A stretch of DNA of 26,385 nucleotides from IMG/VR virus record IMGVR_UViG_2909309443_000009; one strand, given 5' to 3'. This DNA is from a virus (Duplodnaviria > Heunggongvirae > Uroviricota > Caudoviricetes). A program made the translations under genes and the position numbers. The notes below the pieces were generated by a model, which was given only the letters and a program-made list of their open reading frames with translations, was not told where the DNA came from and did not search any database. Of the stretch, positions 1 to 18,907 are shown in pieces; the stretch's first letter is position 1; each line of letters opens with the position of its first letter.

Positions 1-753
1 TCAGATTCCCTGGTGAGTAAGAATTTTACTTTCTGAACTCCTCTGAGAGTATTGACTTGGAGAAACACCAAAATAACGTCTAAATACATAAGTAAAGTAT
101 GAGACACTGGCATAACCACAGACCTTAGCTACTTTACTAATAGGATAACAACGAGTGCTGAGTAAATATTCAGCCATTTGCATCCTCTCATCAAGTATGA
201 TCTTACTGAATGATACCCCCTCTTCTTTCAATTTCCTCTTTAGTAAACTTTCGCTGAGATATAATCTTGATGATATATCCTTAAGACGCCATGGTGCAGA
301 TAAATCCGTATGAATAATCGTTTTAACTTTAGCCCCTGTGCTTTTCAAACATCCAAACAGAAATACTCCAAATTGTTTTTCAGAAGAAAATGCAGAGAGA
401 CATGTAAAAGCAATAGACTCATCAAAAATTTCTATGTATTCAGCACAGTGATTAGCCCAACTAATTAATCCTTTAATTAAACTGAAGTCAGCAAAGTTTA
501 TTTTTAAATAAGATGGATATTCCCTACAATCAGAAATATCCCTTAAGTTATTAGCTTTCAAATAGCGACTAATAAACTCAGCGCCAAAATCCGCCACTAT
601 CACTCTTTCAGGATATGTCAGGAAAAAATCTCTAGAGCTAGAGTCGACAAGTACAGATGAACCTCTCTCCAGAAACACAATCTCTTTTCCTAAATAAACA
701 TCAAAGGACTCCAAAATCAATATAACTGAACATGTAGTTGCCATATCATCCAC
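1..753 (-). CDS. AraC/XylS-family transcriptional regulator (AT-rich, island-type)
   Basis: 250-aa ORF; C-terminal AraC-type HTH signature (KVAKVCGYASVSYFTYVFRRYFGVSPSQY); stop codon at window positions 1-3; markedly AT-rich codon usage. Confidence 0.7.
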   Translation of the reverse strand: MDDMATTCSVILILESFDVYLGKEIVFLERGSSVLVDSSSRDFFLTYPERVIVADFGAEFISRYLKANNLRDISDCREYPSYLKINFADFSLIKGLISWANHCAEYIEIFDESIAFTCLSAFSSEKQFGVFLFGCLKSTGAKVKTIIHTDLSAPWRLKDISSRLYLSESLLKRKLKEEGVSFSKIILDERMQMAEYLLSTRCYPISKVAKVCGYASVSYFTYVFRRYFGVSPSQYSQRSSESKILTHQGI

Positions 754-1328
754 CCAATTTAACTGAAACTAGGATGAAGTATATGCATATAAAGTTCACT
801 TTGCCAAACTTCAGTATAAAAAACCACATAAAAAATAGGGTGTGATAAAAAATACCGTAACAATAAAGCAAAGGATTATAAATTCCGTTACAGTTACAAA
901 TGATACTCAAGAAACAATTCCTTAGGAAAAACTTATTTACAGCCAATAAGTAAGACACTTATATGATATCAAGTTTTCATAAAACATAACTAGGCTAAAT
1001 AGCTTCGCCTAATACCGCTACACTTTTGCCAGCCCATGTTTGCCTCCGGGTATTGACCCCTTCTCTACGCAACTTCAGTTCCCACCACCAACTTTGCGGC
1101 AGCTTTGTAGGATCAATGTCTAAAAGAATAATGGTGACCGATAAGAAAACGACTGAATAACTGCAGATTTTCGCTCGAAACCTTCCTGTCAGATCCATAG
1201 CGAATCAAGTGCTGAATGTCACAGTATCGAACAGAAAACAGTGACGATCTAACCCTTCAAGAATATTCTACGATTGTTCTGTTTAGGAAAAGCAAGGCGG
1301 GAAGTCGGGAGATAAGTCATTGATAAAG

Positions 1329-1394
1329 TGGCGGAGAGAGGGGGATTTGAACCCCCGGTAGAGTTGCCCCTACTCCGGTTTTCGAGACCGGTCC
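1329..1394 (-). other. 3' fragment (about 66 nt) of a tRNA-Ser gene, anticodon CGA (serU-like); att-site remnant, not an intact tRNA
   Basis: Minus-strand sense reads GGACCGGTCTCGAAAACCGG (anticodon stem-loop, CGA) + long variable arm + T-arm GGGGGTTCAAATCCCCC + CTCTCCGCCA; the 5' acceptor/D-arm is absent and sequence diverges after 1394. Confidence 0.75.
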
Positions 1395-1475
1395 AATCAT
1401 AAAACGAAACATAAAATTAATTCACATTATGAGGAAAAAGTATCTTTTTTGTACTATGTAAATTCAAAGACTTAG

Positions 1476-2345
<870 letters not shown>

Positions 2346-2438
2346 GTCTTTAAGTGATAAGCATAAACCGCAGCACGATCTTGCATACGACGTGCTACGG
2401 TTTCATTTATCTCCGACTGGAAACTTCTTATACAAAGA

Positions 2439-2957
2439 CTATACGCCAACATCATAAATGATCGCCACCTTCTGGCGAGGAACTCCTGATGCAATTAATC
2501 GTCCGGCTTGTGCCCATTGTTCTGGTGTAAGTTTGGGACGACGTCCACCAATTCGTCCCTGTGCGCGAGCAGCTTCCAGTCCAGCTTTTGTTCGTTCAAC
2601 AATCAGTTCTCGTTCCATTTCAGCCAGGGCACCCATCACATGAAAGAAAAAACGCCCCATCGGCGTGCTGGTATCAATAGCATCCGTCAGGCTGCGAAAA
2701 TTAACGCCACGTTCGCGCAACTCCTCAACCAGAATGACCAGATGCCGCATACTACGCCCCAGCCGATCCAGCTTCCAGACAACCAGAGTGTCACCTGCCG
2801 ATAATGTCCTGAGCAGTTTTTTCAGTCCCAGCCTTTCGGACTTTGTACCGCTTATCTTGTCTTCAAAAATCAGCTCGCATCCTGCACAGTTCAGCGCATT
2901 ACGTTGTAGATCTGTGTTCTGGTCATTTGTTGACACACGTACATAGCCAATAAGCAT
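2439..2957 (-). CDS. pin: Pin/Gin/Hin-family serine DNA invertase, inverted second copy, C-terminally truncated (ends ...IIYDVGV)
   Basis: MLIGYVRVSTNDQ... resolvase/invertase catalytic domain; near-identical to 4835-5389 but lacks the last ~12 residues of the HTH; lies in a ~600-bp inverted repeat. Confidence 0.7.
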   Translation of the reverse strand: MLIGYVRVSTNDQNTDLQRNALNCAGCELIFEDKISGTKSERLGLKKLLRTLSAGDTLVVWKLDRLGRSMRHLVILVEELRERGVNFRSLTDAIDTSTPMGRFFFHVMGALAEMERELIVERTKAGLEAARAQGRIGGRRPKLTPEQWAQAGRLIASGVPRQKVAIIYDVGV

Positions 2958-2983
2958 GGTAGATCTCCCTGACAAAAGCAGGA

Positions 2984-3271
2984 ATGATGCCATTTGCTCG
3001 TTATTTCTGCATTTTCATAAATGTTGGTTTGGGAGAAGGTGCTCCAGCTATTGGCGTTCCGTTCTTCTGGCCGTCCGCTGCAATGCCAAATACTGTAATC
3101 GACAGCTGGTCCAGTATGGTGTTTTTGAAGTTCAACGGCGCGAAATTCTCTGCCACTGATTATCCTGTGCTGGCGAAAGTGTTTCCTTCGCTGGTATTAC
3201 CTGAAGCCCGCGGTGATTTCATTCGTATCTGGATGACGGGCGAGGTGCAGACGGTGGTCGCGAATTATTAA
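2984..3271 (+). CDS. Orphan tail-fibre C-terminal variable cassette (Sv-like) reading through the left crossover site
   Basis: ORF begins MMPFARYFCIFINVGLGEG across the crossover site, then a unique C-terminal cassette; no upstream constant tail-fibre region exists. Confidence 0.45.
   Translation: MMPFARYFCIFINVGLGEGAPAIGVPFFWPSAAMPNTVIDSWSSMVFLKFNGAKFSATDYPVLAKVFPSLVLPEARGDFIRIWMTGEVQTVVANY
3012..3037. repeat. pix/gix/hix-like 26-bp invertase crossover site (left)
   Basis: TTTTCATAAATGTTGGTTTGGGAGAA, reverse complement resembles hix/gix consensus TTnTCnAAACC..GGTTT..GAnAA; inverted partner at 4755-4780. Confidence 0.6.
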
Positions 3272-3479
3272 GCTGGCAGGCAGCTACAAACTTTTCTCAG
3301 TTTGCCGGGAATATAGGCGAAGGTGCGGGACACGCAATTAACTTTCATGATGGCATCGCCGGAAATCAGCCAGGATTTTCACGATTTAATTTCACCAGTA
3401 ACTCTGTGGGTGATGGTGTGAATTTTGTTGCTGTCAGACCGCGAAATATTGCATTTAACTTTCTGGTGAGGGCTAAATA

Positions 3480-4073
3480 ATGAAACCTGTTTTTGATGAA
3501 AATGGGCTGGCTACAGTGCCGGGCGATATGCGTTGTTTTTATTATGATGCTGAAACATCTGAGTATACGGGCTGGTCTGATGAATATATTAATACTGGCG
3601 TAAGTATGCCCGCCTGTTCCACTGGTATTGACCCTGGCGAAAACATTCCGGGAAGAGTGGCAGTATTTACAGGTAAGGGATGGCGCCATGAAGAAGACCA
3701 TCGCAATGAGACTGTTTACTTAATCGAAAATGGCGCAGCTGTTACAGTGGATTATATCGGTGCCATCAAAGACGGTTATGTCACGATTTCACCGTTAACG
3801 CCATACGATAAATGGGATGGTGAGAAATGGGTGACAGACACTGAGGCACAACACAGTGCCGCAGTAGACGCGGCAGAAGCACAGCGCCAGTCACTGATTG
3901 ATGCAGCAATGGCTTCCATTAGTCTGATTCAGCTGAAATTACAGGCCGGACGGAAACTGACTCAGGCAGAAACAACCCGACTTAACGCCGTGCTGGATTA
4001 CATTGACGCGGTGACGGCAACAGATACCAGCACCGCGCCGGATATCATCTGGCCTGAACTGCCGGAGGCGTAG
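3480..4073 (+). CDS. Tail fibre assembly protein (Tfa/U-like)
   Basis: 197-aa ORF with RBS GAGGG; Tfa-like N-terminus and C-terminal region; position directly after the tail-fibre cassette inside the invertible segment. Confidence 0.65.
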   Translation: MKPVFDENGLATVPGDMRCFYYDAETSEYTGWSDEYINTGVSMPACSTGIDPGENIPGRVAVFTGKGWRHEEDHRNETVYLIENGAAVTVDYIGAIKDGYVTISPLTPYDKWDGEKWVTDTEAQHSAAVDAAEAQRQSLIDAAMASISLIQLKLQAGRKLTQAETTRLNAVLDYIDAVTATDTSTAPDIIWPELPEA

Positions 4074-4259
4074 GCCATTCAATATCGGGTGCTGTTGACG
4101 TATCAACACGCATCAGCAGCACACGGTATTTCTTCCATTGGGTGAGAGTTGTAGCTTCTTCATCAGTTGCGATATCAGCATCAACAGCATCCTGACGCCA
4201 GGATATTTCACTGTCAGCTTTTTCCCGTAATTGGGATTTTTTAACTTCAGCAATAGCTA

Positions 4260-4472
4260 TTAATTCCTTTTGGTCGGCTGAGGAATATCTATCAGTGCTG
4301 GTTTTCCATTCAGTGTTCCAATCTGTTTTCCTGGTGGAATATCCATAAATAACTTCTTATGTTCTTCCTCACTGACTATTACACCATCATCAGGCCACAG
4401 ACCTGATGCCTCAAATTTTTCTTTCTCCGATATGGGGAAAAAGCCATTTGCTTTAGCGCTCCATACGTACAT
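4260..4472 (-). CDS. Tail fibre assembly protein, alternative copy, truncated (70 aa)
   Basis: Tfa-like N-terminus (MYVWSAKANGFFPI...) on the opposite strand, convergent with 3480-4073; premature stop suggests a decayed gene. Confidence 0.4.
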   Translation of the reverse strand: MYVWSAKANGFFPISEKEKFEASGLWPDDGVIVSEEEHKKLFMDIPPGKQIGTLNGKPALIDIPQPTKRN

Positions 4473-4487
4473 ATCAATACCCCACCG

Positions 4488-4808
4488 CTATAATGTCCAC
4501 ATTAAATCCCCGGGACCTGCCTGCCAGATGCTGGCCCCTGTTAATGATTTTGTTTGATGAACAACCGCCACATTTGCTGGCGATTGTGTTTCAGTTGTTA
4601 CAGTACCGATATCATTCCAGTTAATTGAGATGGAATAGTTCGTTGTTGTAAACGACCGGGGGAAAGTTATGTGTCTTACATTGGTGCCGACAGGAAATCC
4701 AAGATAAACACGCTGAATTATCATTCCTCCAGGTAACATAACCCAGTTAGCACCTTCTCCAAAACCAAGGTTTATGAAAATGCAGAAATAACGAGCAAAT
4801 GGCATCAT
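4488..4808 (-). CDS. Orphan alternative tail-fibre C-terminal cassette (Sv'-like) reading through the right crossover site
   Basis: Begins with the same MMPFARYFCIFIN junction peptide as 2984-3271, then a different C-terminal cassette. Confidence 0.45.
   Translation of the reverse strand: MMPFARYFCIFINLGFGEGANWVMLPGGMIIQRVYLGFPVGTNVRHITFPRSFTTTNYSISINWNDIGTVTTETQSPANVAVVHQTKSLTGASIWQAGPGDLMWTL
4755..4780. repeat. pix/gix/hix-like 26-bp invertase crossover site (right)
   Basis: TTCTCCAAAACCAAGGTTTATGAAAA; compare hixL TTCTTGAAAACCAAGGTTTTTGATAA; ~55 bp upstream of pin. Confidence 0.65.
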
Positions 4809-4834
4809 TCCTGCTTTTACCTGGGGGATCTACC

Positions 4835-5389
4835 ATGCTTATTGGCTATGTTCGCGTATCAACAAATGACCAGAACACCGATCTACAACGTAATGCGTTG
4901 AACTGTGTAGGATGTGAACTGATTTTTGAAGACAAGATAAGCGGTACGAAGTCCGAAAGACCGGGACTGAAAAAACTGCTCAGGACATTATCGGCAGGTG
5001 ACACTCTGGTGGTCTGGAAACTGGATCGGCTGGGGCGTAGTATGCGGCATCTGGTCATTCTGGTTGAGGAGTTGCGCGAACGTGGCGTTAATTTTCGCAG
5101 CCTGACGGATGCTATTGATACCAGCACACCGATGGGGCGTTTTTTCTTTCATGTGATGGGTGCCCTGGCTGAAATGGAACGAGAACTGATTGTTGAACGA
5201 ACAAAAGCTGGACTGGAAGCTGCTCGCGCACAGGGACGAATTGGGGGACGTCGTCCCAAACTTACACCAGAACAATGGGCGCAGGCCGGGCGATTAATTG
5301 CATCAGGCGTTCCTCGCCAGAAGGTGGCGATCATCTATGATGTTGGTATATCGACACTGTATAAGAAGTTTCCGGTCGGAGATAAATGA
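4835..5389 (+). CDS. pin: Pin/Gin/Hin-family serine DNA invertase (full length)
   Basis: 184 aa from MLIGYVRVSTNDQNTDLQRNAL...; complete C-terminal HTH (...VAIIYDVGISTLYKKFPVGDK); RBS GGGGGA upstream. Confidence 0.85.
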   Translation: MLIGYVRVSTNDQNTDLQRNALNCVGCELIFEDKISGTKSERPGLKKLLRTLSAGDTLVVWKLDRLGRSMRHLVILVEELRERGVNFRSLTDAIDTSTPMGRFFFHVMGALAEMERELIVERTKAGLEAARAQGRIGGRRPKLTPEQWAQAGRLIASGVPRQKVAIIYDVGISTLYKKFPVGDK

Positions 5390-5860
5390 AACCGTAGCAT
5401 GTCGTATGCAAGATTGTGCGCGGTTGGCTGGTGAACTTTCGATAGTGCGAGTATTGAATGATTTCCAGCCGTTATCGATTTTATGTATTTTTTGCATGAG
5501 AGGATTTCCATCACCTCCCACCGGCCATCTATGACTTTACGCCACTGTCCCTAGGACTACTATGTACTAGGAGCGGATGTTAAACTCAGACTCGTTTCAG
5601 CTACATTGCGTTTTGAATAATATTCCATCATAATAACTCTTTGAAAAATGTAACCTTTTCATTTATAACACTTATGACTTACTTATCTCATTGGGATATC
5701 GGAGGCGAATACTTAACTATGACAAGCCCGATTATTATGACGCTGGCGATATTATATAGATTGATATTAAAATGTAGGATTAGGTTCTTGCCAAGGTGTC
5801 AAGATTTACAGATAGGTTTAAAACCATATAAATATGTTTTACGGTGAGATGTAATAATTA

Positions 5861-5911: not shown

Positions 5912-8900
5912 ATGGAACCCATATCAATTACAGTGGCAACTTATGTAGCAACTAAACTTATTGATCAATTCATTTCTCAAGAAGGATATAGTTGGATTAA
6001 GAAAGCATTATTCCCCACAGAAAAATATGTGGATAGATTATATCAACTAATTGAAGAGACGGCAATTGAGTTTGAAGAAACATATCCAGTAGAAAGTGGA
6101 GCAATTCCATTTTATCATTCTAAACCATTGTTTGAGATGTTGAATGAGTACATCCTTTTTAAAGAGTTCCCTGACAAAGAGATGTTATTAGACAAGTTCA
6201 AAGAATATCCAAGCGTCACTCCCCCAACTCAACAACAACTCAGCCTTTTTTATGGGATGTTATCATTAAAAATCAATAATTGTTCGAAGTTAAAAAAGCT
6301 ACATATCGAAGAAACGTATAAAGAAAAAATATTCGATATTAATGAAGAGCTCATTCAAGTCAAACTTATTTTACGGTCTATAGATGAGAAACTAACTTTT
6401 CACTTAAGTGATGATTGGTTAAATGAAAAAAATAGTCAAGCAATAGCTGACTTGGGAGGTCGATACACACCCGAACTCAACGTAAAGCTAGAAATAGCAG
6501 AGATATTTGATGGCCTCGGTAGAACTAATGATTTTTCTAAAATATTTTATTCGCATATAGATAGCTTTCTGGTCGCTGGAAAGAAATTACATAGTTGCGA
6601 TGTAATTTCCTCAGAATTATTTGAAATAAACCAGTCCTTAAAAGAAATTTCTGATATATATCAGGAGATTAATTTTTCTAAATTAGATGAAATCCCTATA
6701 AATAAATTTAATAACTATGTTTCTAGCTGCCAGACAGCTATTGGCGGAGCGGTATCAATATTGTGGGAACTCCGAGAAAAGTCAGAGCAAGTAGGTGAAA
6801 CCAAGCATTACAGTGATAAGTATTCATCTACTCTGCGAATGCTTCGGGAATTTGACTATGCGTGCAATGAATTACGTATATTCATTAATTCAACAACAGT
6901 GAAGTTGGCTAACAACCCATTCTTACTTCTCGAAGGAAAAGCAGGAATTGGTAAGTCTCATTTACTGGCTGATGTGATTAAAAATCGAATTGCTTCTGGG
7001 TATCCTTCACTACTCATACTAGGGCAACAACTTACTTCAGATGAATCTCCATGGTCACAAATCTTCAAGAGATTACAGCTTAAAATCACTTCTCGTGAAT
7101 TCCTAGAAAAACTGAATTTATATGGCAAAAAAACAGGAAAAAGAGTCTTAGTTTTTATTGATGCTATTAATGAAGGTAATGGAAATAAATTCTGGAATGA
7201 CAATATTAACAGTTTTGTCGATGAAATCAGATGCTTTGAATGGCTTGGTCTGATAATGTCAGTCAGAACAACATATAGAAATGTAACAATTTCACATGAG
7301 AATGTTGTGCGAAATAATTTTGAAATTCATGAACATATTGGATTCCAGAACGTTGAGTTGGAAGCGGTTAGTCTATTTTATGATTATTACAATATTGAGA
7401 GGCCTTCATCTCCTAACCTTAATCCAGAGTTTAAAAATCCTCTATTTCTTAAGTTATTGTGTGAAGGCATTAAGAAAAATGGTTTAACCAAAGTGCCTGT
7501 TGGATTTAATGGGATTTCAAATATTTTTAACTTTTTAGTTGAAGGGGTAAATAAATCATTAGCATCGCCAAAAAAATATGCATTCGATCCCAGTTTTCCT
7601 CTTGTTAAAGATGCTCTCAATGAAATCATAAAATTCAAATTAGAGATTGGTCGTAATAGTATTTCACTTAAAGATGCTCACTCAGTGGTTCAATCTGTAG
7701 TTAATGATTATGTTGCTGATAAAACCTTCCTCAGCGCCTTGATTGACGAAGGATTATTGACTAAAGGCATAGTGAGAAATGATGATAATTCTACTGAGGA
7801 AGTAGTTTATGTGGCTTTTGAAAGGTTTGATGATCATTTAACTGTTAATTTTTTATTAAATGATGTTGAAAATATCGAAAGTGAATTTAAGCCTGATGGT
7901 CGTCTGAAAAAATATTTTCATGATGAATGTGATTTTTATATAAAATCGGGAATAGTAGAGGCGTTGTCTATTCAATTGCCAGAAAGGTATGAAAAAGAGC
8001 TTTATGAATTTCTGCCGGAGTTCAGCAATAATCTTAAATTACTAGAAGCCTTTATTGATAGCTTGATATGGCGCGATATTAAGGCTATTTATTTCGAAAA
8101 AATTAGACCTTTCATCAATGAACATGTTTTTAAATTTAAAGATAGTTTTGATCATTTCCTCGAGGCAGTGATCTCTATTTCAGGTTTAGTTGGCCATCCC
8201 TTTAATGCTAATTTCTTGCATGATTGGCTAAAAGATTATTCTTTGGCAAATCGAGATTCGTTTTGGACTACAGAACTTAAATATAAATATAGTGAAGACT
8301 CAGCATTTAGGCATCTAATCGATTGGGCATGGGCCAGAACAGATAAAAGCTTTGTTTCGGATGAGTCAATCGAGCTAGTTGCAACTAGTTTATGCTGGTT
8401 TTTAACTTCTAGTAACCGAGAACTTCGAGATTGCTCAACTAAGGCTTTAGTGAGTTTACTCGAGCCAAGAATTCCTGTATTGAGAAAAATAATTGATAAG
8501 TTTTATGGTGTAAATGATCCTTACGTTTGGGAAAGAATATTTGCAGTTGCATTAGGCTGTACATTGCGAACTGATAATATTAAAGAACTAAAATATTTAG
8601 CCGAAACTGTTTACCAAAAGGTATTTTGTTCTAAGTATGTGTATCCAAATATATTACTTAGAGATTATGCTAGAGAGATTATTGAATTTGCTAATCATCT
8701 TGGATTGGAACTTGAAAGCATTGAATTATCCAAGACTAGACCACCCTACAACAGCATTTGGCCTGACAAGATTCCTTCAAAAGAGGAACTAGAGTCCCTT
8801 TATGATAAAGAACCTTATCGGGAACTCTGGAGCTCTATTATGGAAGATGGTGACTTTTCACGATATACTATTGGAACAAATTATAATCATTCTGATTGGT

Positions 8901-10366
8901 CTGGTTGCAAGTTTAATGAAACCCCTGTTGACCGTAAGCAAGTTTTTAAAACTTTCAAATGTAAACTAACTGATCAACAAAAAGACTTGTATGATGCCAC
9001 AGATCCTTTCATTTATGATGATAAATGCGAAGGAATTAAATTTGGTCGTGTGGTCGGTAGAAAAGCACAGGAAGAAATAAAGGCGAGCAAGAAATTATTT
9101 AAGAATTCATTGTCATACGATCTGTTAAGTGAGTTTGAAAATGAAATAGAGCCATACCTGGATCATAATAATAATCTGCTGGAAACTGATAAACACTTTG
9201 ATCTTCGACTAGCTCAACAATTTATATTCAATCGTGTTATAGAGCTTGGTTGGGATCCGGAGAAGCATGGTAATTTTGACCAACAAATAGGAACTGGACG
9301 TGGACGTAGAGAGGCATTCCAAGAACGGATTGGTAAAAAATACCAATGGATTGCTTATTATGAATACATGGCAAGGCTAGCCGATAATTTTACTCGTTTT
9401 GAAGGTTATGGTGACGAACGAAAGGAAAATCCATACCAAGGGCCATGGGAGCCTTACGTAAGAGATATAGATCCCACTATCTTACTTAAAGAAACTGGAA
9501 CGAAAAAAATAAGCAATAAAGAAATGTGGTGGCTTAATGATGAAGTGTTTGATTGGACTTGCTCTAATGAAGACTGGGTTAAAAGTTCTACTACTATAAC
9601 TAATTCATATGCTTTTATTGAAGTTAAAGATGATAATGGTGATGAATGGATAGTATTAGAAAGTCATCCATCATGGAAAGAACCAAAAATTATTGGAAAC
9701 GATGATTGGGGGCACCCACGAAAAGAGGTTTGGTATCAGATCAGAAGTTATATCGTTAAAGTTGAAGAATTTGAAAATTTTAGATGTTGGGCAATAGCTC
9801 AAGACTTTATGGGCAGGTGGATGCCGGAATGTACTGATAGATACCAATTATTTAATAGGGAGTACTATTGGTCCGAAGCATTTAAGTCTTTTAAATCAGA
9901 TTATTATGGTGGATCTGACTGGACTTCGGTAACAGACCGGGAGTCTGGAGCTAAGATAGCTGATGTTAGTGTCACTTCGATTAATTATTTGTGGGAAGAG
10001 GAGTTCGACAAATCAAAAATAGAAACTTTGAATTTTTTGAAGCCTAGTAACTTAATCTTTGAAAAGATGGGATTAAAAAGTGGGGAAGTAGAGGGTAGCT
10101 TCAATGATGAAAATGGAACTATGGTTTGCTTTGCAGCTGAAGCTGTATATGCTTCAAAGCCGCATCTACTTGTTAAAAAAGAACCATTTTTAACAATGTT
10201 AAGGGACAATGGTTTTGAAATCGTTTGGACATTATTAGGTGAAAAGGGCGTTATAGGGGGCTCACTCATATCAAGTCATCATTATGGTCGACAGGAGTTT
10301 AGTGGAGCATTTTATTATGAAGACAGTCAGCTAACAGGAAGTCATAAAACTAGCTTTACGAGATAA
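5912..10366 (+). CDS. Large (1484 aa) STAND/NACHT-like P-loop NTPase with uncharacterised N- and C-terminal modules; candidate antiphage defence protein
   Basis: Uninterrupted ORF with strong RBS; Walker A GKAGIGKS (nt 6935-6958), Walker B VLVFIDAINE (~7145-7177), sensor-1-like LIMSVRT; AT-rich; sits between pin and an att core. Confidence 0.8.
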   Translation: MEPISITVATYVATKLIDQFISQEGYSWIKKALFPTEKYVDRLYQLIEETAIEFEETYPVESGAIPFYHSKPLFEMLNEYILFKEFPDKEMLLDKFKEYPSVTPPTQQQLSLFYGMLSLKINNCSKLKKLHIEETYKEKIFDINEELIQVKLILRSIDEKLTFHLSDDWLNEKNSQAIADLGGRYTPELNVKLEIAEIFDGLGRTNDFSKIFYSHIDSFLVAGKKLHSCDVISSELFEINQSLKEISDIYQEINFSKLDEIPINKFNNYVSSCQTAIGGAVSILWELREKSEQVGETKHYSDKYSSTLRMLREFDYACNELRIFINSTTVKLANNPFLLLEGKAGIGKSHLLADVIKNRIASGYPSLLILGQQLTSDESPWSQIFKRLQLKITSREFLEKLNLYGKKTGKRVLVFIDAINEGNGNKFWNDNINSFVDEIRCFEWLGLIMSVRTTYRNVTISHENVVRNNFEIHEHIGFQNVELEAVSLFYDYYNIERPSSPNLNPEFKNPLFLKLLCEGIKKNGLTKVPVGFNGISNIFNFLVEGVNKSLASPKKYAFDPSFPLVKDALNEIIKFKLEIGRNSISLKDAHSVVQSVVNDYVADKTFLSALIDEGLLTKGIVRNDDNSTEEVVYVAFERFDDHLTVNFLLNDVENIESEFKPDGRLKKYFHDECDFYIKSGIVEALSIQLPERYEKELYEFLPEFSNNLKLLEAFIDSLIWRDIKAIYFEKIRPFINEHVFKFKDSFDHFLEAVISISGLVGHPFNANFLHDWLKDYSLANRDSFWTTELKYKYSEDSAFRHLIDWAWARTDKSFVSDESIELVATSLCWFLTSSNRELRDCSTKALVSLLEPRIPVLRKIIDKFYGVNDPYVWERIFAVALGCTLRTDNIKELKYLAETVYQKVFCSKYVYPNILLRDYAREIIEFANHLGLELESIELSKTRPPYNSIWPDKIPSKEELESLYDKEPYRELWSSIMEDGDFSRYTIGTNYNHSDWSGCKFNETPVDRKQVFKTFKCKLTDQQKDLYDATDPFIYDDKCEGIKFGRVVGRKAQEEIKASKKLFKNSLSYDLLSEFENEIEPYLDHNNNLLETDKHFDLRLAQQFIFNRVIELGWDPEKHGNFDQQIGTGRGRREAFQERIGKKYQWIAYYEYMARLADNFTRFEGYGDERKENPYQGPWEPYVRDIDPTILLKETGTKKISNKEMWWLNDEVFDWTCSNEDWVKSSTTITNSYAFIEVKDDNGDEWIVLESHPSWKEPKIIGNDDWGHPRKEVWYQIRSYIVKVEEFENFRCWAIAQDFMGRWMPECTDRYQLFNREYYWSEAFKSFKSDYYGGSDWTSVTDRESGAKIADVSVTSINYLWEEEFDKSKIETLNFLKPSNLIFEKMGLKSGEVEGSFNDENGTMVCFAAEAVYASKPHLLVKKEPFLTMLRDNGFEIVWTLLGEKGVIGGSLISSHHYGRQEFSGAFYYEDSQLTGSHKTSFTR

Positions 10367-11617: not shown

Positions 11618-13189
11618 TTACTGAGAGCTCAGATCAACTTTCCAGGGCAACAGATCGCGTACCCGGTTTGCCGGCCAGTCCTGGATATGTTCAATGACGT
11701 AACGCAGCCACTTTTCTGACTCCACATTGTTCAGACGGCATGTGCCGATCAGCGAGTACAACACCGCCGCATGTTCACCACCGCTGTCGGAACCCGCGAA
11801 CATCCAGTTTTTCCGGCCTACGGCCACTCCCCGTAAGGCGTTCTCTGCGATGTTGTTGTCGATTTCCACCCAGCCATTACTGCAGTACACGTTCAGTGCA
11901 TCCCACTGTTTCAGCAGGTATGCGAACGCTTTTGCCGTATCTGAGTGACGCGACAGTGTTTTCATCTGTTGCTGTATCCAGTCATACAGTGACTGCATCA
12001 GTGGCGCGGCTCTGGCTTTTCTTGCCGCCAGACGCTGTTCTGCTGAACAGCCCCGGACCTCTGCCTCGATGGCATACAGTTCACCGATACGCTGCAGGGC
12101 TTCCGTGGTGATGTAGGTGGGCGCTCTTGCATGCACATCGTGGATTTTTCTCCGGACATGAGCCATACACGCGGCTTCCGTTATTCTGCCGGATTCGTAT
12201 AACGCCCGGTAACCACCGTAAGCATCGGCCTGAAGCACACCGCTGTAACCGGCCAGGTGATTTTGTGGATGGATACCTTTCCGGTCCGGACTGTACGCGA
12301 ACCAGACCGCCGGGGGCATCTGTGAACCGGCGTTACGGTCATCACGGACGTAGACCCACAGCCGGGCTGTCCGGGTTTTACCGCTGCCCGGCTCCTGGAC
12401 CGGGACGGGGATATCATCAGCATGGACTTTACCGGGCATCAGCACATACTGGCGCAGGACGTCATACAGCGGCTCCAGCAGTTCAGCAACAGCACCTGTC
12501 CAGCGCCCCAGTGTGGCACGGCTCAGCTCCACGCCCTGACGACGGTATATTTCTGACTGGCGGTATAACGGCAGATGGTCTGCATATTTCCCGGTGACAA
12601 CATGGGCCAGAAGCCCCGCTCCGGCATAACTGCGTGCAATGGGTTTTGAAGGTACTGGTGCCTGCACGATATGGTCGCACCGGCAACAGGCCTGTTTCGG
12701 ACGTTGTGTTTCGATAACCTTAAAGGCGCTGCTGATAAGCTCCAGTTGCTCTGACACATCACATCCCAGAGAACTGAGTTCACCACCACAGGCAGGACAG
12801 CATTCCTCTTCCGGCCGGATAACCCGGGTTTCACGGGGAAGTGAGGCCGGTAACGGTTTACGGGCTGAAGACTGGCGCAGGGGGGATGGCAGTACCGGGT
12901 CATATTGCTCACCCAGCGTTTCTGCCATTTCTTCCTGAAGTGCGCTGATTCGCTCCTGTGCTTCCTGTATCTGCCGTTCGGTTTTTGCGCGAAGTTTTTC
13001 TGAGCTTTTACCGAACTGCATACGTTGCAGTTTCGCAACCAGCGCCTTCAGCCGGTTGATTTCGGAAGCATAAGCCGCCACCCGCTGTGAGAGCAGGCGG
13101 TTGTATTCAGCCATCTGGCGTATGGTGTCCTGTTGCGTCTGCAACAGTGCCCGCAGGCGGGCGTTCTCATGAGCAAGTGAGGTGTCCAT
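11618..13189 (-). CDS. tnpC: IS66-family transposase TnpC
   Basis: 523-aa ORF with N-terminal coiled-coil/leucine-zipper-like region and Cys-rich segment typical of IS66 TnpC. Confidence 0.8.
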
Positions 13190-13208
13190 ATCCTCACTTT
13201 ACAACGGG

Positions 13209-13556
13209 TTATATGCGGATTCCAGCGCGTTCCGTTCGTTTCGGGTGCTTCCAGTTGATACCTTCAAGAAGCATGGATAACTGAGCCGGAGTAAGGTGCA
13301 CCTTGCCGTCACGGGTGACTGGCCAGACGAAGCGGCCCCGCTCCAGGCGTTTGGTGAAGAGGCACAGTCCGTCACTGTCAGCCCACAACACTTTTATCTG
13401 GTCACCCCGGCGTCCGCGGAAGATGAACAGGTGTCCGGAGAACGGGTCATCCTTCAGGACGTTCTGAACTTTTGATGCCAGGCCGTTAAAGCCATTTCGC
13501 ATATCGGTGATACCTGCAACCAGCCAGATACGCGAACCTGCAGGGAGAGATATCAT
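13209..13556 (-). CDS. tnpB: IS66-family accessory protein TnpB (Orf2)
   Basis: 115-aa ORF MISLPAGSRIWLVAGITDMRNGFNGL... immediately upstream of tnpC. Confidence 0.75.
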   Translation of the reverse strand: MISLPAGSRIWLVAGITDMRNGFNGLASKVQNVLKDDPFSGHLFIFRGRRGDQIKVLWADSDGLCLFTKRLERGRFVWPVTRDGKVHLTPAQLSMLLEGINWKHPKRTERAGIRI

Positions 13557-13680
13557 CAGTGGCTGCTCCCTTTTATTTCGCGGATAAGTGTCTGTAATAA
13601 CGCCGGCGTCAGTTTACCTTTAAGCCTGAGAGTTCCGGCCGGCAGAACCAGCTCACAACACAGACTGTCGGACGGTGTAT

Positions 13681-14232
13681 TTATCTGCTCTGGTTCCTGT
13701 GCGGGGCCGGGATTTTATTATCCGGCTCCGGCGTTAACGTCACGGGAAGCAGTGCCGGCATATTTTTTCCGGAAGGCAGCAGGCCACCTTTCCGGTATTG
13801 ATGGCGCCAGTTGAAGAGCAGGTTATCGTTGATTCCGTTTTCCCGGGCGATCTGCGCCACACAGGCTCCGGGCTGCAGTGACTGCTCCACTAAGGCGATT
13901 TTAAACTCATAAGGGAAGTTGGGCCGCCGGGGACGTTTTTTTACCACGGGGGCTTCGGATATAACGGTGCTTTCAGGACGTACGACTGGTATCGTGGAAA
14001 ATTGTCCGTAAAGGCAGGCATCAAGTTCCTGCTCCGACATGCCTGCGGGCAAAGGCCACGAAAGGCCAGCTCTCCGAAAGCGCACGAACATACTACAAAC
14101 TGTTGATTTTGGTACACCCAGGCGACGCCCGGCCACAACCCGGGGTAAATGTTCTTCAAAGTGAAGACGTAAAGCTTCAGTGATCCAGGTCCGGTGTTTC
14201 ATACGATAGTGTCCATTAAAAATGATGGACAT
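13681..14232 (-). CDS. tnpA: IS66-family accessory protein TnpA (Orf1), HTH-containing; N-terminal extent uncertain
   Basis: C-terminal part RPRRPNFPYEFKIALVEQSLQPGACVAQIARENGINDNLLFNWRHQYR is a transposase-type HTH; 124-bp gap before tnpB is atypical. Confidence 0.55.
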   Translation of the reverse strand: MSIIFNGHYRMKHRTWITEALRLHFEEHLPRVVAGRRLGVPKSTVCSMFVRFRRAGLSWPLPAGMSEQELDACLYGQFSTIPVVRPESTVISEAPVVKKRPRRPNFPYEFKIALVEQSLQPGACVAQIARENGINDNLLFNWRHQYRKGGLLPSGKNMPALLPVTLTPEPDNKIPAPHRNQSR

Positions 14233-14353
14233 TATTTTTGTAGAGCCGGAGGAAACAGACCAGACGGTTTAAATGAGCCGGTTACTGCCAAGCCGCAAAC
14301 ACCTGTCCCGGCTCATTTCCCAGTTCAGGCGATGGCGGCGGTTTTCCATCCCG

Positions 14354-14563
14354 TCTATCCGGAGGAAACAACACGATCTCCACTGAAGCAGGTGCCGACG
14401 TTGGTTTCGGCAGACGACGTAACTGCTCAACTATTGCTGCGCACGCCGCGCTCTGGAATTTTCGCCCCGCCGCGCTTATCAGGCTCTTACCAGCAAACGC
14501 CCCTTTGTTGGGGTGTCGCCAGTACGTGTTCACGCTGGGCGGAAAAGGCAGGATCAGCTTCAT
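14354..14563 (-). pseudogene. RusA-like Holliday-junction resolvase, N-terminal ~70 codons only, fused to an integrase fragment
   Basis: MKLILPFPPSVNTYWRH...VEIVLFPPDRR resembles the RusA N-terminus; homology stops near 14350, where another frame (14294-14350) encodes MENRRHRLNWEMSRDRCLRLGKPV matching the integrase. Confidence 0.55.
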
Positions 14564-14886
14564 ACTTTCAGGTCCCTCTCATGTAACCAGTGGGTTGCAC
14601 GCAGCCTTGCGTTTTCCTCACCGGCAAGCAGTGCGCGGATAATCCCGACCGCCTCGCTGTCGTCGTCCTTCACCGCGGTATGAAGCGTTATCCCCCGGGC
14701 CACGCCACGCTTTATCGTGATGACGCCTTTTTTCTCCAGTGCGCGAAGATGCTCCACCGCTGCATTCACCGAACGGTATCCCAGCATGGTTGCCACCTCC
14801 TGATTGGTTGGCGGGAAGCCACGTTCTTTCTGATAAGAAATCAGCATATCCAGCACCTGCTGCTGGCATTGAGTTAACGTCGTCAT
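14560..14886 (-). CDS. LexA-like winged-helix DNA-binding protein lacking the S24 peptidase domain
   Basis: QQQVLDMLISYQKERGFPPTNQEVATMLGYRSVNAAVEHLRALEKKGVI closely parallels the LexA N-terminal DNA-binding domain; 108 aa total; 4-nt overlap with upstream gene. Confidence 0.6.
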   Translation of the reverse strand: MTTLTQCQQQVLDMLISYQKERGFPPTNQEVATMLGYRSVNAAVEHLRALEKKGVITIKRGVARGITLHTAVKDDDSEAVGIIRALLAGEENARLRATHWLHERDLKV

Positions 14887-18117: not shown

Positions 18118-18214
18118 ACGCCCTCCAAATATTGCGCGTTATGCATGTTATTTCACGCAATTATTTTGCGCAAGTTGATTTGCTTATCACGCAATAAAGA
18201 AATGTAATAAACGC
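18118..18214. promoter_or_regulatory. Divergent immunity promoter/operator region (OR-like) between cro and cI
   Basis: Repeated TCACGCAAT / TTGCGC(A/G) motifs (18132-18137, 18153-18161, 18166-18171, 18187-18196) in the 97-bp gap between divergent HTH regulator genes. Confidence 0.5.
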
Positions 18215-18907
18215 ATGAACATAGGAAACCGAGTCAGACAACTTCGCCAAGCGAAGAACATGAAAATCGCCGATCTCGCTGAAGCGATAGGAGTAGATGC
18301 GGCGAACATCTCGCGCTTAGAAACGGGTAAGCAAAAACAATTTACCGAACAAACACTGAGTAATATTGCCAAGAGCTTAGGTGTTGATATTGCTGATCTC
18401 TTTACCTCTGCCCACAAAAGTAATACTGTATATAAAAACAGTAATAATGAGGATGTTGCGCAGGTGAAGGATGTGTTCCGTATTGAAATGCTGGATATCA
18501 GTGCCAGTGCGGGAAATGGCCTTATCCAGGGCGGTGATGTCATTGATGTGATTCATGCCATCGAATACAGAACTGATAATGCTGTATCAATGTTCGGCGG
18601 ACGACCAGCCAATCACATCAAAGTTATCAACGTTCGTGGGGACAGTATGTGTCCAACCATTGAGCCCGGAGATCTCATCTTCGTTGATGTCAGCATCAAT
18701 CAGTTTGATGGTGATGGTATATATGTCTTTGGTTTTGATGACAAAATATACGTTAAAAGACTTCAAATGATTCCTGACAAACTGCTGGTGATTTCTGATA
18801 ACCAGATTTACCGTGAATGGGGAATTACTAGCGAAAACGAACACCGATTCATGGTCTTTGGAAAGGTCTTAATCAGTCAGTCGCAAACCCTTAAGAGACA
18901 TAATTAA
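18215..18907 (+). CDS. cI-type prophage repressor (XRE HTH + S24 LexA-like peptidase domain)
   Basis: N-terminal HTH (MKIADLAEAIGVDAANISRLETGKQ) and C-terminal S24 domain (INVRGDSMCPTIEPGDLIFVD ... KRL). Confidence 0.85.
   Translation: MNIGNRVRQLRQAKNMKIADLAEAIGVDAANISRLETGKQKQFTEQTLSNIAKSLGVDIADLFTSAHKSNTVYKNSNNEDVAQVKDVFRIEMLDISASAGNGLIQGGDVIDVIHAIEYRTDNAVSMFGGRPANHIKVINVRGDSMCPTIEPGDLIFVDVSINQFDGDGIYVFGFDDKIYVKRLQMIPDKLLVISDNQIYREWGITSENEHRFMVFGKVLISQSQTLKRHN

Follow-up and report, generated by a model that had tools for sequence, protein, structure and literature searches.

A gene located at positions 14560 to 14886 (minus strand) of the 26,385 nt stretch of prophage DNA analysed here (the window) encodes an intact LexA DNA-binding domain without the LexA protease, and its match to LexA is far beyond chance. 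The open reading frame opens with an ATG and specifies a 108-amino acid protein whose sequence is the one quoted in the original prediction. PGAP names the product a 'LexA family transcriptional regulator' (WP_000210155.1), and it belongs to phrog_362, a family of lambdoid nin-region proteins. We propose that it may be a phage regulator descended from proteobacterial LexA, in which the S24 protease/dimerization domain would have been swapped for a two-helix hairpin. That the protein is a DNA-binding regulator of some kind is highly probable, and more graded statements about its target are developed below.

The resemblance to the N-terminal winged-helix domain of LexA, which had been noticed from the letters of the sequence, is borne out by database searches and by structure prediction. 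The Pfam profile LexA_DNA_bind (PF01726) is matched over its full length (positions 1-65 of 65) with an E-value of 2.9e-19 and a score of 69 bits, against a cut-off of 23.7. A sequence search of the PDB returns the E. coli LexA DNA-binding domain (1lea, E = 6e-16) as its best match and full-length LexA at about 1.4e-15, with residues 2-90 of the query aligned to residues 2-86 of LexA. Direct comparison with E. coli LexA by BLASTP gives 39 identities in 90 positions (43%, E = 1e-21). The AlphaFold2 model (mean pLDDT 84.5) contains three helices (residues 6-22, 28-35 and 40-52) and a two-stranded wing (residues 56-58 and 66-68), as in LexA. When compared by Foldseek with LexA bound to DNA (3jso), the model superimposes with an rmsd of 1.0 Å over 68 columns at 50% identity. 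Pfam, the model and Foldseek place the LexA-type winged helix-turn-helix at residues 1-68 (14683-14886, minus strand).

No match to an S24 or other peptidase domain was found in the 108-residue protein with Pfam or NCBIfam. The lexA equivalog model TIGR00498 scores 70.6 bits, under its cut-off of 110.95, and is matched only at model positions 1-91 of 203. The original prediction that the autocleavage domain is missing is thus upheld, and so is the further claim that the protein cannot be cleaved via RecA, because a protein that lacks the S24 domain cannot undergo LexA-type self-cleavage stimulated by RecA*.

The protein is nonetheless more than a bare domain, which the original prediction had not remarked on. 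An acidic linker at residues 69-74 (14665-14682, minus strand), modelled with low confidence (pLDDT below 50 at residues 71-75), leads into an amphipathic hairpin at residues 75-103 (14578-14664, minus strand) that was delineated from the family alignment and the AlphaFold2 model. Its two helices (residues 75-88 and 93-103) are joined by a short turn and are modelled with good confidence. LexA itself dimerizes via its S24 domain (PMC6590174). Since that domain is missing here, the simplest reading is that the hairpin serves as a replacement dimerization module. Many metagenomic proteins carry two tandem LexA DNA-binding domains without S24 (P0130, P0131, P0148, P0150, P0153, P0156 and P0159-P0162), which is another apparent way round a missing dimerization domain.

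The gene was predicted to lie within a prophage operon and to be translationally coupled to a Dam methylase, and both statements hold. RefSeq annotation of an identical stretch in E. coli L1_E925 describes a degraded lambdoid prophage at tRNA-Thr/proA, whose minus-strand genes are, in order, cro-like, ymfL, DUF4222, an O-like replication protein, PerC/yfdN, Dam, the LexA-like gene and rusA. The TGA stop codon (14885-14883) of the Dam gene, a phage N-6-adenine methyltransferase (PF05869/TIGR01712; 14883-15536, minus strand), overlaps the ATG (14886-14884) of the LexA-like gene in an ATGA arrangement, and a Shine-Dalgarno sequence, AGGGAG, lies about 9 nt upstream of the gene. The same arrangement recurs at the other end, where the LexA-like TGA (14562-14560) overlaps the ATG (14563-14561) of rusA (14351-14563, minus strand).

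Gene order and annotation place a divergent cI/cro control region at 18118-18214, which is the presumed source of a leftward early-lytic transcript. When scanned for sigma-70-like sites, the minus strand from this region to the LexA-like gene yielded nothing promoter-like, from which we infer that the cI-repressed early-lytic promoter is the gene's only source of transcription. On this basis, a pR-type transcript would carry cro, ymfL, the O-like gene, PerC, Dam, the LexA-like gene and rusA. The LexA-like protein would be silent in the lysogen and would be made together with Dam and RusA upon derepression. In the intact phage SfII, a KilA-N gene, Q and the lysis genes come after the same gene block, and related phages likewise carry a Q antiterminator for their late genes.

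The late genes are missing from the prophage in the window, and the 3′ end of rusA is truncated by an IS66-family element (11618-14350; tnpC 11618-13189, tnpB 13209-13556, tnpA 13681-14232). This insertion leaves the LexA-like gene as the last intact early-lytic operon gene of the remnant. Exactly this IS66-in-rusA configuration is found in 16 complete genomes. To the left of the element (5912-10366, plus strand, and 1-5400) is a defence and debris island that adjoins the prophage remnant. RefSeq annotation assigns to it a gene for a 1484-amino acid Avs2 (AVAST type 2) anti-phage protein, two pinE-type invertases, tail-fibre assembly fragments, a truncated integrase and a GIY-YIG protein.

The recognition helix, as aligned to LexA, comprises residues 39-52 (S-V-N-A-A-V-E-H-L-R-A-L-E-K; 14731-14772, minus strand). 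To identify DNA contacts we relied on two secondary sources, which disagree on E44. According to a review that covers the crystal structure of LexA on DNA, CTGT is read mainly by S39, N41, A42 and E45 (PMC11442139); an older summary counts E44 among the contacts as well (PMC3091678). Conservation of the recognition helix, on which the original prediction depended, holds for S39, N41, A42 and E45, all of which are kept. Of two other LexA residues, R28 is replaced by N28 and E44 by valine. The RGI motif of the wing is also kept. In the window, the codons for residues 28 and 44 occupy 14803-14805 and 14755-14757, respectively.

A scan of genome contigs recovered mostly genuine host lexA genes, and LexA sequences from 57-72 gammaproteobacterial species among them served to gauge conservation in the hosts. 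R28 and E44 do not vary among 73 host LexAs, yet each of the five aligned phage lineages has both replaced; S63 and A51 are likewise altered consistently in the phage lineages relative to host LexA. The joint loss of R28 and E44 suggests that these residues act as a pair in LexA, possibly through a salt bridge, and that E44 is not an independent base contact. Positions 42-45 also vary, with the helix motif reading NAAVEH, NTITGH, NAAFEH, NAAAEH or NAATDM according to phage lineage, whereas 56 of the 57 host LexAs in the control set carry NAAEEH. Some lineages have lost both A42 and E45, as in Citrobacter (NTITGH) and in P0172 and P0218. By this comparison of sequences, the LexA-like family is clearly less constrained than true LexA, although most lineages still keep the CTGT-reading set.

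The original prediction had also pointed to LexA-box-like sites in promoters; for the prophage, one strong box does exist, and it sits within a coding sequence. Scored with a weight matrix made from 26 E. coli SOS boxes, of which the umuD box alone was checked against K-12, the only strong SOS site in the window is TACTGTATATAAAAACAGTA at 18424-18443 (26.5 bits). In sixty shuffled versions of the window, no site reached 20 bits. This box, a candidate site for LexA or for the LexA-like protein, is identical to the operator located 20 nt upstream of umuD in E. coli K-12. It is embedded in linker codons of the cI-like gene (18215-18907, plus strand), between the HTH and S24 domains of the repressor.

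A box of 20-25 bits is found at the same position in cI homologues that are only 67-83% identical, those of ST64B, Klebsiella P7641 and Kp4882-3, and E. coli Flotzy. The cI-internal boxes map to L002:29167, L203:8210, L204:8210, L286:7210, L287:6344 and L288:7210. The linker peptides are otherwise unrelated, and only T-V-x-x-x-S is kept, which corresponds to aCTGT-N8-(a/c)CAGt. A promoter scan found no sigma-70-like hexamers around the cI-internal box, and no earlier report of an intragenic SOS box in cI was present in the literature searched. The box could possibly act as a roadblock to cI transcription, or mark an internal or antisense promoter.

Two further classes of box were found in related lambdoid phages. 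Type D, TACTGTATTTATGAACAGTG (L050:10765), occupies the gap between rusA and a KilA-N/antirepressor-like gene and looks like a LexA-controlled antirepressor promoter. Type C, TACTGTAAAAATAAACAGTG (L064:13921, L204:235), falls on codons 3-9 of the gene for a late N6/N4 DNA methylase, just downstream of Q. At least one strong SOS box is present at a regulatory node in 46 of 81 related phage loci.

The LexA-like gene frequently accompanies these boxes, being present in 14 of the 15 cI-box contigs with enough flank, in 65 of 69 type D contigs and in 29 of 38 type C contigs. This co-occurrence reflects physical linkage, because rusA is itself present in the box contigs (69 of 69 for type D and 32 of 38 for type C). 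ST64B, P7641, Kp4882-3 and Flotzy carry the cI box without the LexA-like gene, and host LexA alone therefore suffices to explain the phage boxes. Conversely, no SOS box of 16 bits or more lies within 10 kb on either side of the LexA-like gene in the Kosakonia and Buttiauxella loci. We therefore rejected a functional dependence between gene and boxes in either direction, as each occurs without the other once the phages are more divergent. The phage boxes remain canonical even beside divergent recognition helices (L206, L159), and they are natural candidate targets if the phage protein reads CTGT.

Our favoured reading is that the LexA-like protein, probably dimerizing through its tail, would bind CTGT-type palindromes resembling SOS boxes. 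This target is plausible, though we give it somewhat less than even weight. It is favoured because the LexA domain is complete, because the model superimposes so closely on DNA-bound LexA and because the four readout residues are kept. The strong boxes at regulatory nodes of 46 related loci also count in its favour. Movement of the gene among mosaic phages without a conserved, linked cis-acting site also fits a universal host target, and Enterobacterales hosts, as far as is known, share the CTGT-N8-ACAG SOS box. The reading is weakened because a strict LexA mimic should match the conservation of LexA, whereas positions 42-45 vary and no aligned phage lineage retains R28 or E44. It is weakened further because the phage boxes are explained by host LexA alone, and because the precedent described below changed both the site and the sign of regulation.

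If SOS boxes are indeed bound, the inability to self-cleave would make the protein a RecA*-insensitive stand-in for LexA, active during infection or once host LexA is gone. Part of the host SOS regulon would then be repressed, as would the LexA-wired nodes of the phage where these are present: the cI-internal box, the Ant promoter beside rusA and the late methylase gene. In its fullest form, which we consider rather unlikely, this surrogate would come on after induction or infection and bring both sets of boxes back under repression. On the host side these would include recA itself, genes for SOS toxins and colicin-type lysis, and the antirepressors of rival prophages that LexA controls.

Alternatively, the protein may be a phage regulator of altered specificity that recognizes another palindrome, in a phage promoter or a non-SOS host promoter, and possibly activates transcription. 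We regard this as a serious possibility, if a less than probable one. It has a precedent in GIL01 gp6, which consists only of a LexA domain, binds a site other than that of LexA and activates a late promoter (PMC6182141). Moreover, the loss of R28 and E44 from each aligned lineage and the diversification of positions 42-45 form a pattern typical of immunity-type regulators. The retention of S39, N41, A42 and E45 in most lineages argues against such retargeting, as does the existing service of late genes by the Q antiterminator in these phages. A conserved candidate site linked to the gene across the mosaic phages would also be expected, but a de novo survey of conserved 6 nt inverted repeats in the 81 loci returned only coding-sequence coincidences and nothing convincing. 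One such palindrome, CCAGCA-N5-TGCTGG, was rejected as a site because it sits in the QCQQQVLD codons of the LexA-like gene itself.

The distribution of the gene bears on a different role. Relatives that are 40-67% identical were recovered by a profile-free search of 1.8 billion representatives, combined with locus retrieval, from Citrobacter, Cronobacter, Kosakonia, Enterobacter, Cedecea, Klebsiella, Buttiauxella and Salmonella. Together with Escherichia, all of these host genera belong to the Enterobacterales. The only neighbour conserved in all lineages is rusA, which lies directly downstream, and the LexA-like gene is almost always immediately upstream of it. Dam is often upstream, but not always. 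The conserved gene partner of the family is therefore rusA and not Dam. In ST64B, the Dam homologue (sb44, L203:3529-4422; 297 amino acids, with an unrelated C-terminal extension of about 80 residues) adjoins rusA directly, at the spot where other phages carry the LexA-like gene.

This linkage raises the possibility that the protein is not a transcription factor, but rather a DNA-binding accessory that works with RusA (and Dam) in recombination or replication of phage DNA. Its ATGA-coupled adjacency to rusA is the only feature of gene order that is conserved down to 42% identity, and it holds in Citrobacter, Kosakonia, Buttiauxella and L159. The nin regions of lambdoid phages do encode small DNA-binding proteins whose functions relate to recombination. 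Nevertheless, the adjacency may be mere operon linkage, the domain is a sequence-specific winged helix-turn-helix with conserved readout residues, and neither structure nor sequence links it to junction-binding proteins. We consider this role improbable.

The relatives share the layout of a LexA domain, a short variable linker and a tail with the amphipathic pattern h-h-R-A-L-L ... A-R-x-R-A-x-x-W/F-L, in which A97 and L101 are invariant. The tail remains amphipathic and conserved across genera between lineages that are only 40-50% identical, and the tail-bearing family was found only in prophages of the Enterobacterales. Within the tail of the window protein, A88-G89 aligns with the scissile A84-G85 of LexA, and the HMMER and BLASTP alignments run through LexA residues 79-86. 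The segment could accordingly be viewed as a decoy of the cleavage-site region (ALLA-GE, similar to VAA-GE of LexA) that titrates RecA* or the LexA active site. This is very improbable, as the Ala-Gly pair is not conserved (relatives have ER, TR, SG, DD, AC, AE or AD in the same columns) and the model places the segment in a helix of the hairpin. We consider mimicry of the cleavage site to be largely refuted by the family alignment and the predicted helix.

The gene is also very common, and its variation is strongly constrained. Fifty deposited phage genomes encode the protein at 95-100% identity, among them SfII, SfV (orf42), SfIV, mEp460, the cdtI phage and many Stx1 and Stx2 phages, including 1720a-02. 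At the DNA level, 2233 of 5426 complete E. coli genomes (about 41%) carry the gene, with up to four copies per genome. Among 102 copies representing 58 distinct alleles, pN/pS is 0.13, third codon positions account for 55 of the 82 segregating sites, and residues 35-54, which include the helix-turn-helix, show no amino acid variation. The match to phrog_362 (a 'transcriptional repressor' in PHROGs) covers positions 1-106 of 106 (E = 3.8e-59), the tail included. The low pN/pS, the wide occurrence and this full-length match indicate, on sequence grounds, that the LexA-like protein is maintained and functional under purifying selection. The state of the prophage itself, with IS66 in rusA and its late genes missing, might suggest a decaying, functionless remnant of a captured lexA gene, but this is negligible as an explanation and refuted by the selection and conservation data, which include a constant length of 108 amino acids in the functional phages SfII, SfV, mEp460 and Stx phages and conservation of the tail across genera.

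Literature searches aimed at the protein found no functional study. The gene is very common and was already annotated by homology, and what is new here is the conserved tail, the linkage to rusA, the loss of R28 and E44 beside four retained readout residues, and the strength of purifying selection. If SOS boxes are bound, many E. coli, Shigella and Stx-phage lysogens would carry a latent, uncleavable LexA analogue that comes on exactly when host LexA is destroyed, with consequences for mutagenesis that depends on SOS, for the expression of toxins and colicins, for the dynamics of Stx-phage induction and for competition among prophages that share a host. Should the surrogate reading be true, derepression even of a defective prophage would reshape SOS output and the prophage hierarchy in about 41% of E. 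coli. If another site is read, GIL01 gp6 would no longer be the sole instance in which a phage has captured the SOS repressor domain of a host and given it a new target, and the two captures would be independent. Separately, the conserved SOS box within cI offers a clue to how this repressor family is tied to LexA.

Among known systems, E. coli LexA shares the winged-helix fold, with 43% identity over 90 residues rising to 50-51% over the 67-69 that are structurally aligned. Unlike LexA, the phage protein has no S24 domain, no Ser119/Lys156 and no family-conserved Ala-Gly site; it carries a two-helix tail, has R28 and E44 replaced and scores under the TIGR00498 cut-off. It is also encoded by a phage and would be expressed with lytic genes. 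The LexA 1-84 fragment and LexA(Ind-) are comparable in that the DNA-binding domain is parted from the protease or LexA is insensitive to RecA*. The affinity of the 1-84 fragment drops when dimerization is lost, and ClpXP and Lon degrade it after cleavage exposes degradation signals (PMC6590174), whereas the phage protein finishes with a conserved module of its own and exposes no end created by cleavage. Stand-alone LexA_DNA_bind proteins are widespread in tailed phages and tectiviruses. These proteins (65-152 amino acids in BFVD, and the tandem P0130 and P0131) have the same fold and likewise lack S24, but most are without the two-helix tail.

The only characterized phage LexA homologue in the literature searched is gp6 of the Bacillus phage GIL01. 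Like the protein described here, this truncated LexA homologue is phage-encoded, is essentially a LexA DNA-binding domain without the protease and is the product of an early gene (PMC6182141). In contrast, gp6 is 66 amino acids in length and has no tail, and GIL01 is a tectivirus rather than a lambdoid phage. The two proteins give no BLASTP alignment at E ≤ 100, and this lack of detectable similarity suggests that they are independent captures, with gp6 derived from a Gram-positive LexA. Since gp6 binds GaCACAnnTGTGaC rather than the LexA box of its host, and is an activator of the late promoter P3 (PMC6182141), its example suggests by analogy that a captured LexA domain need not keep its target.
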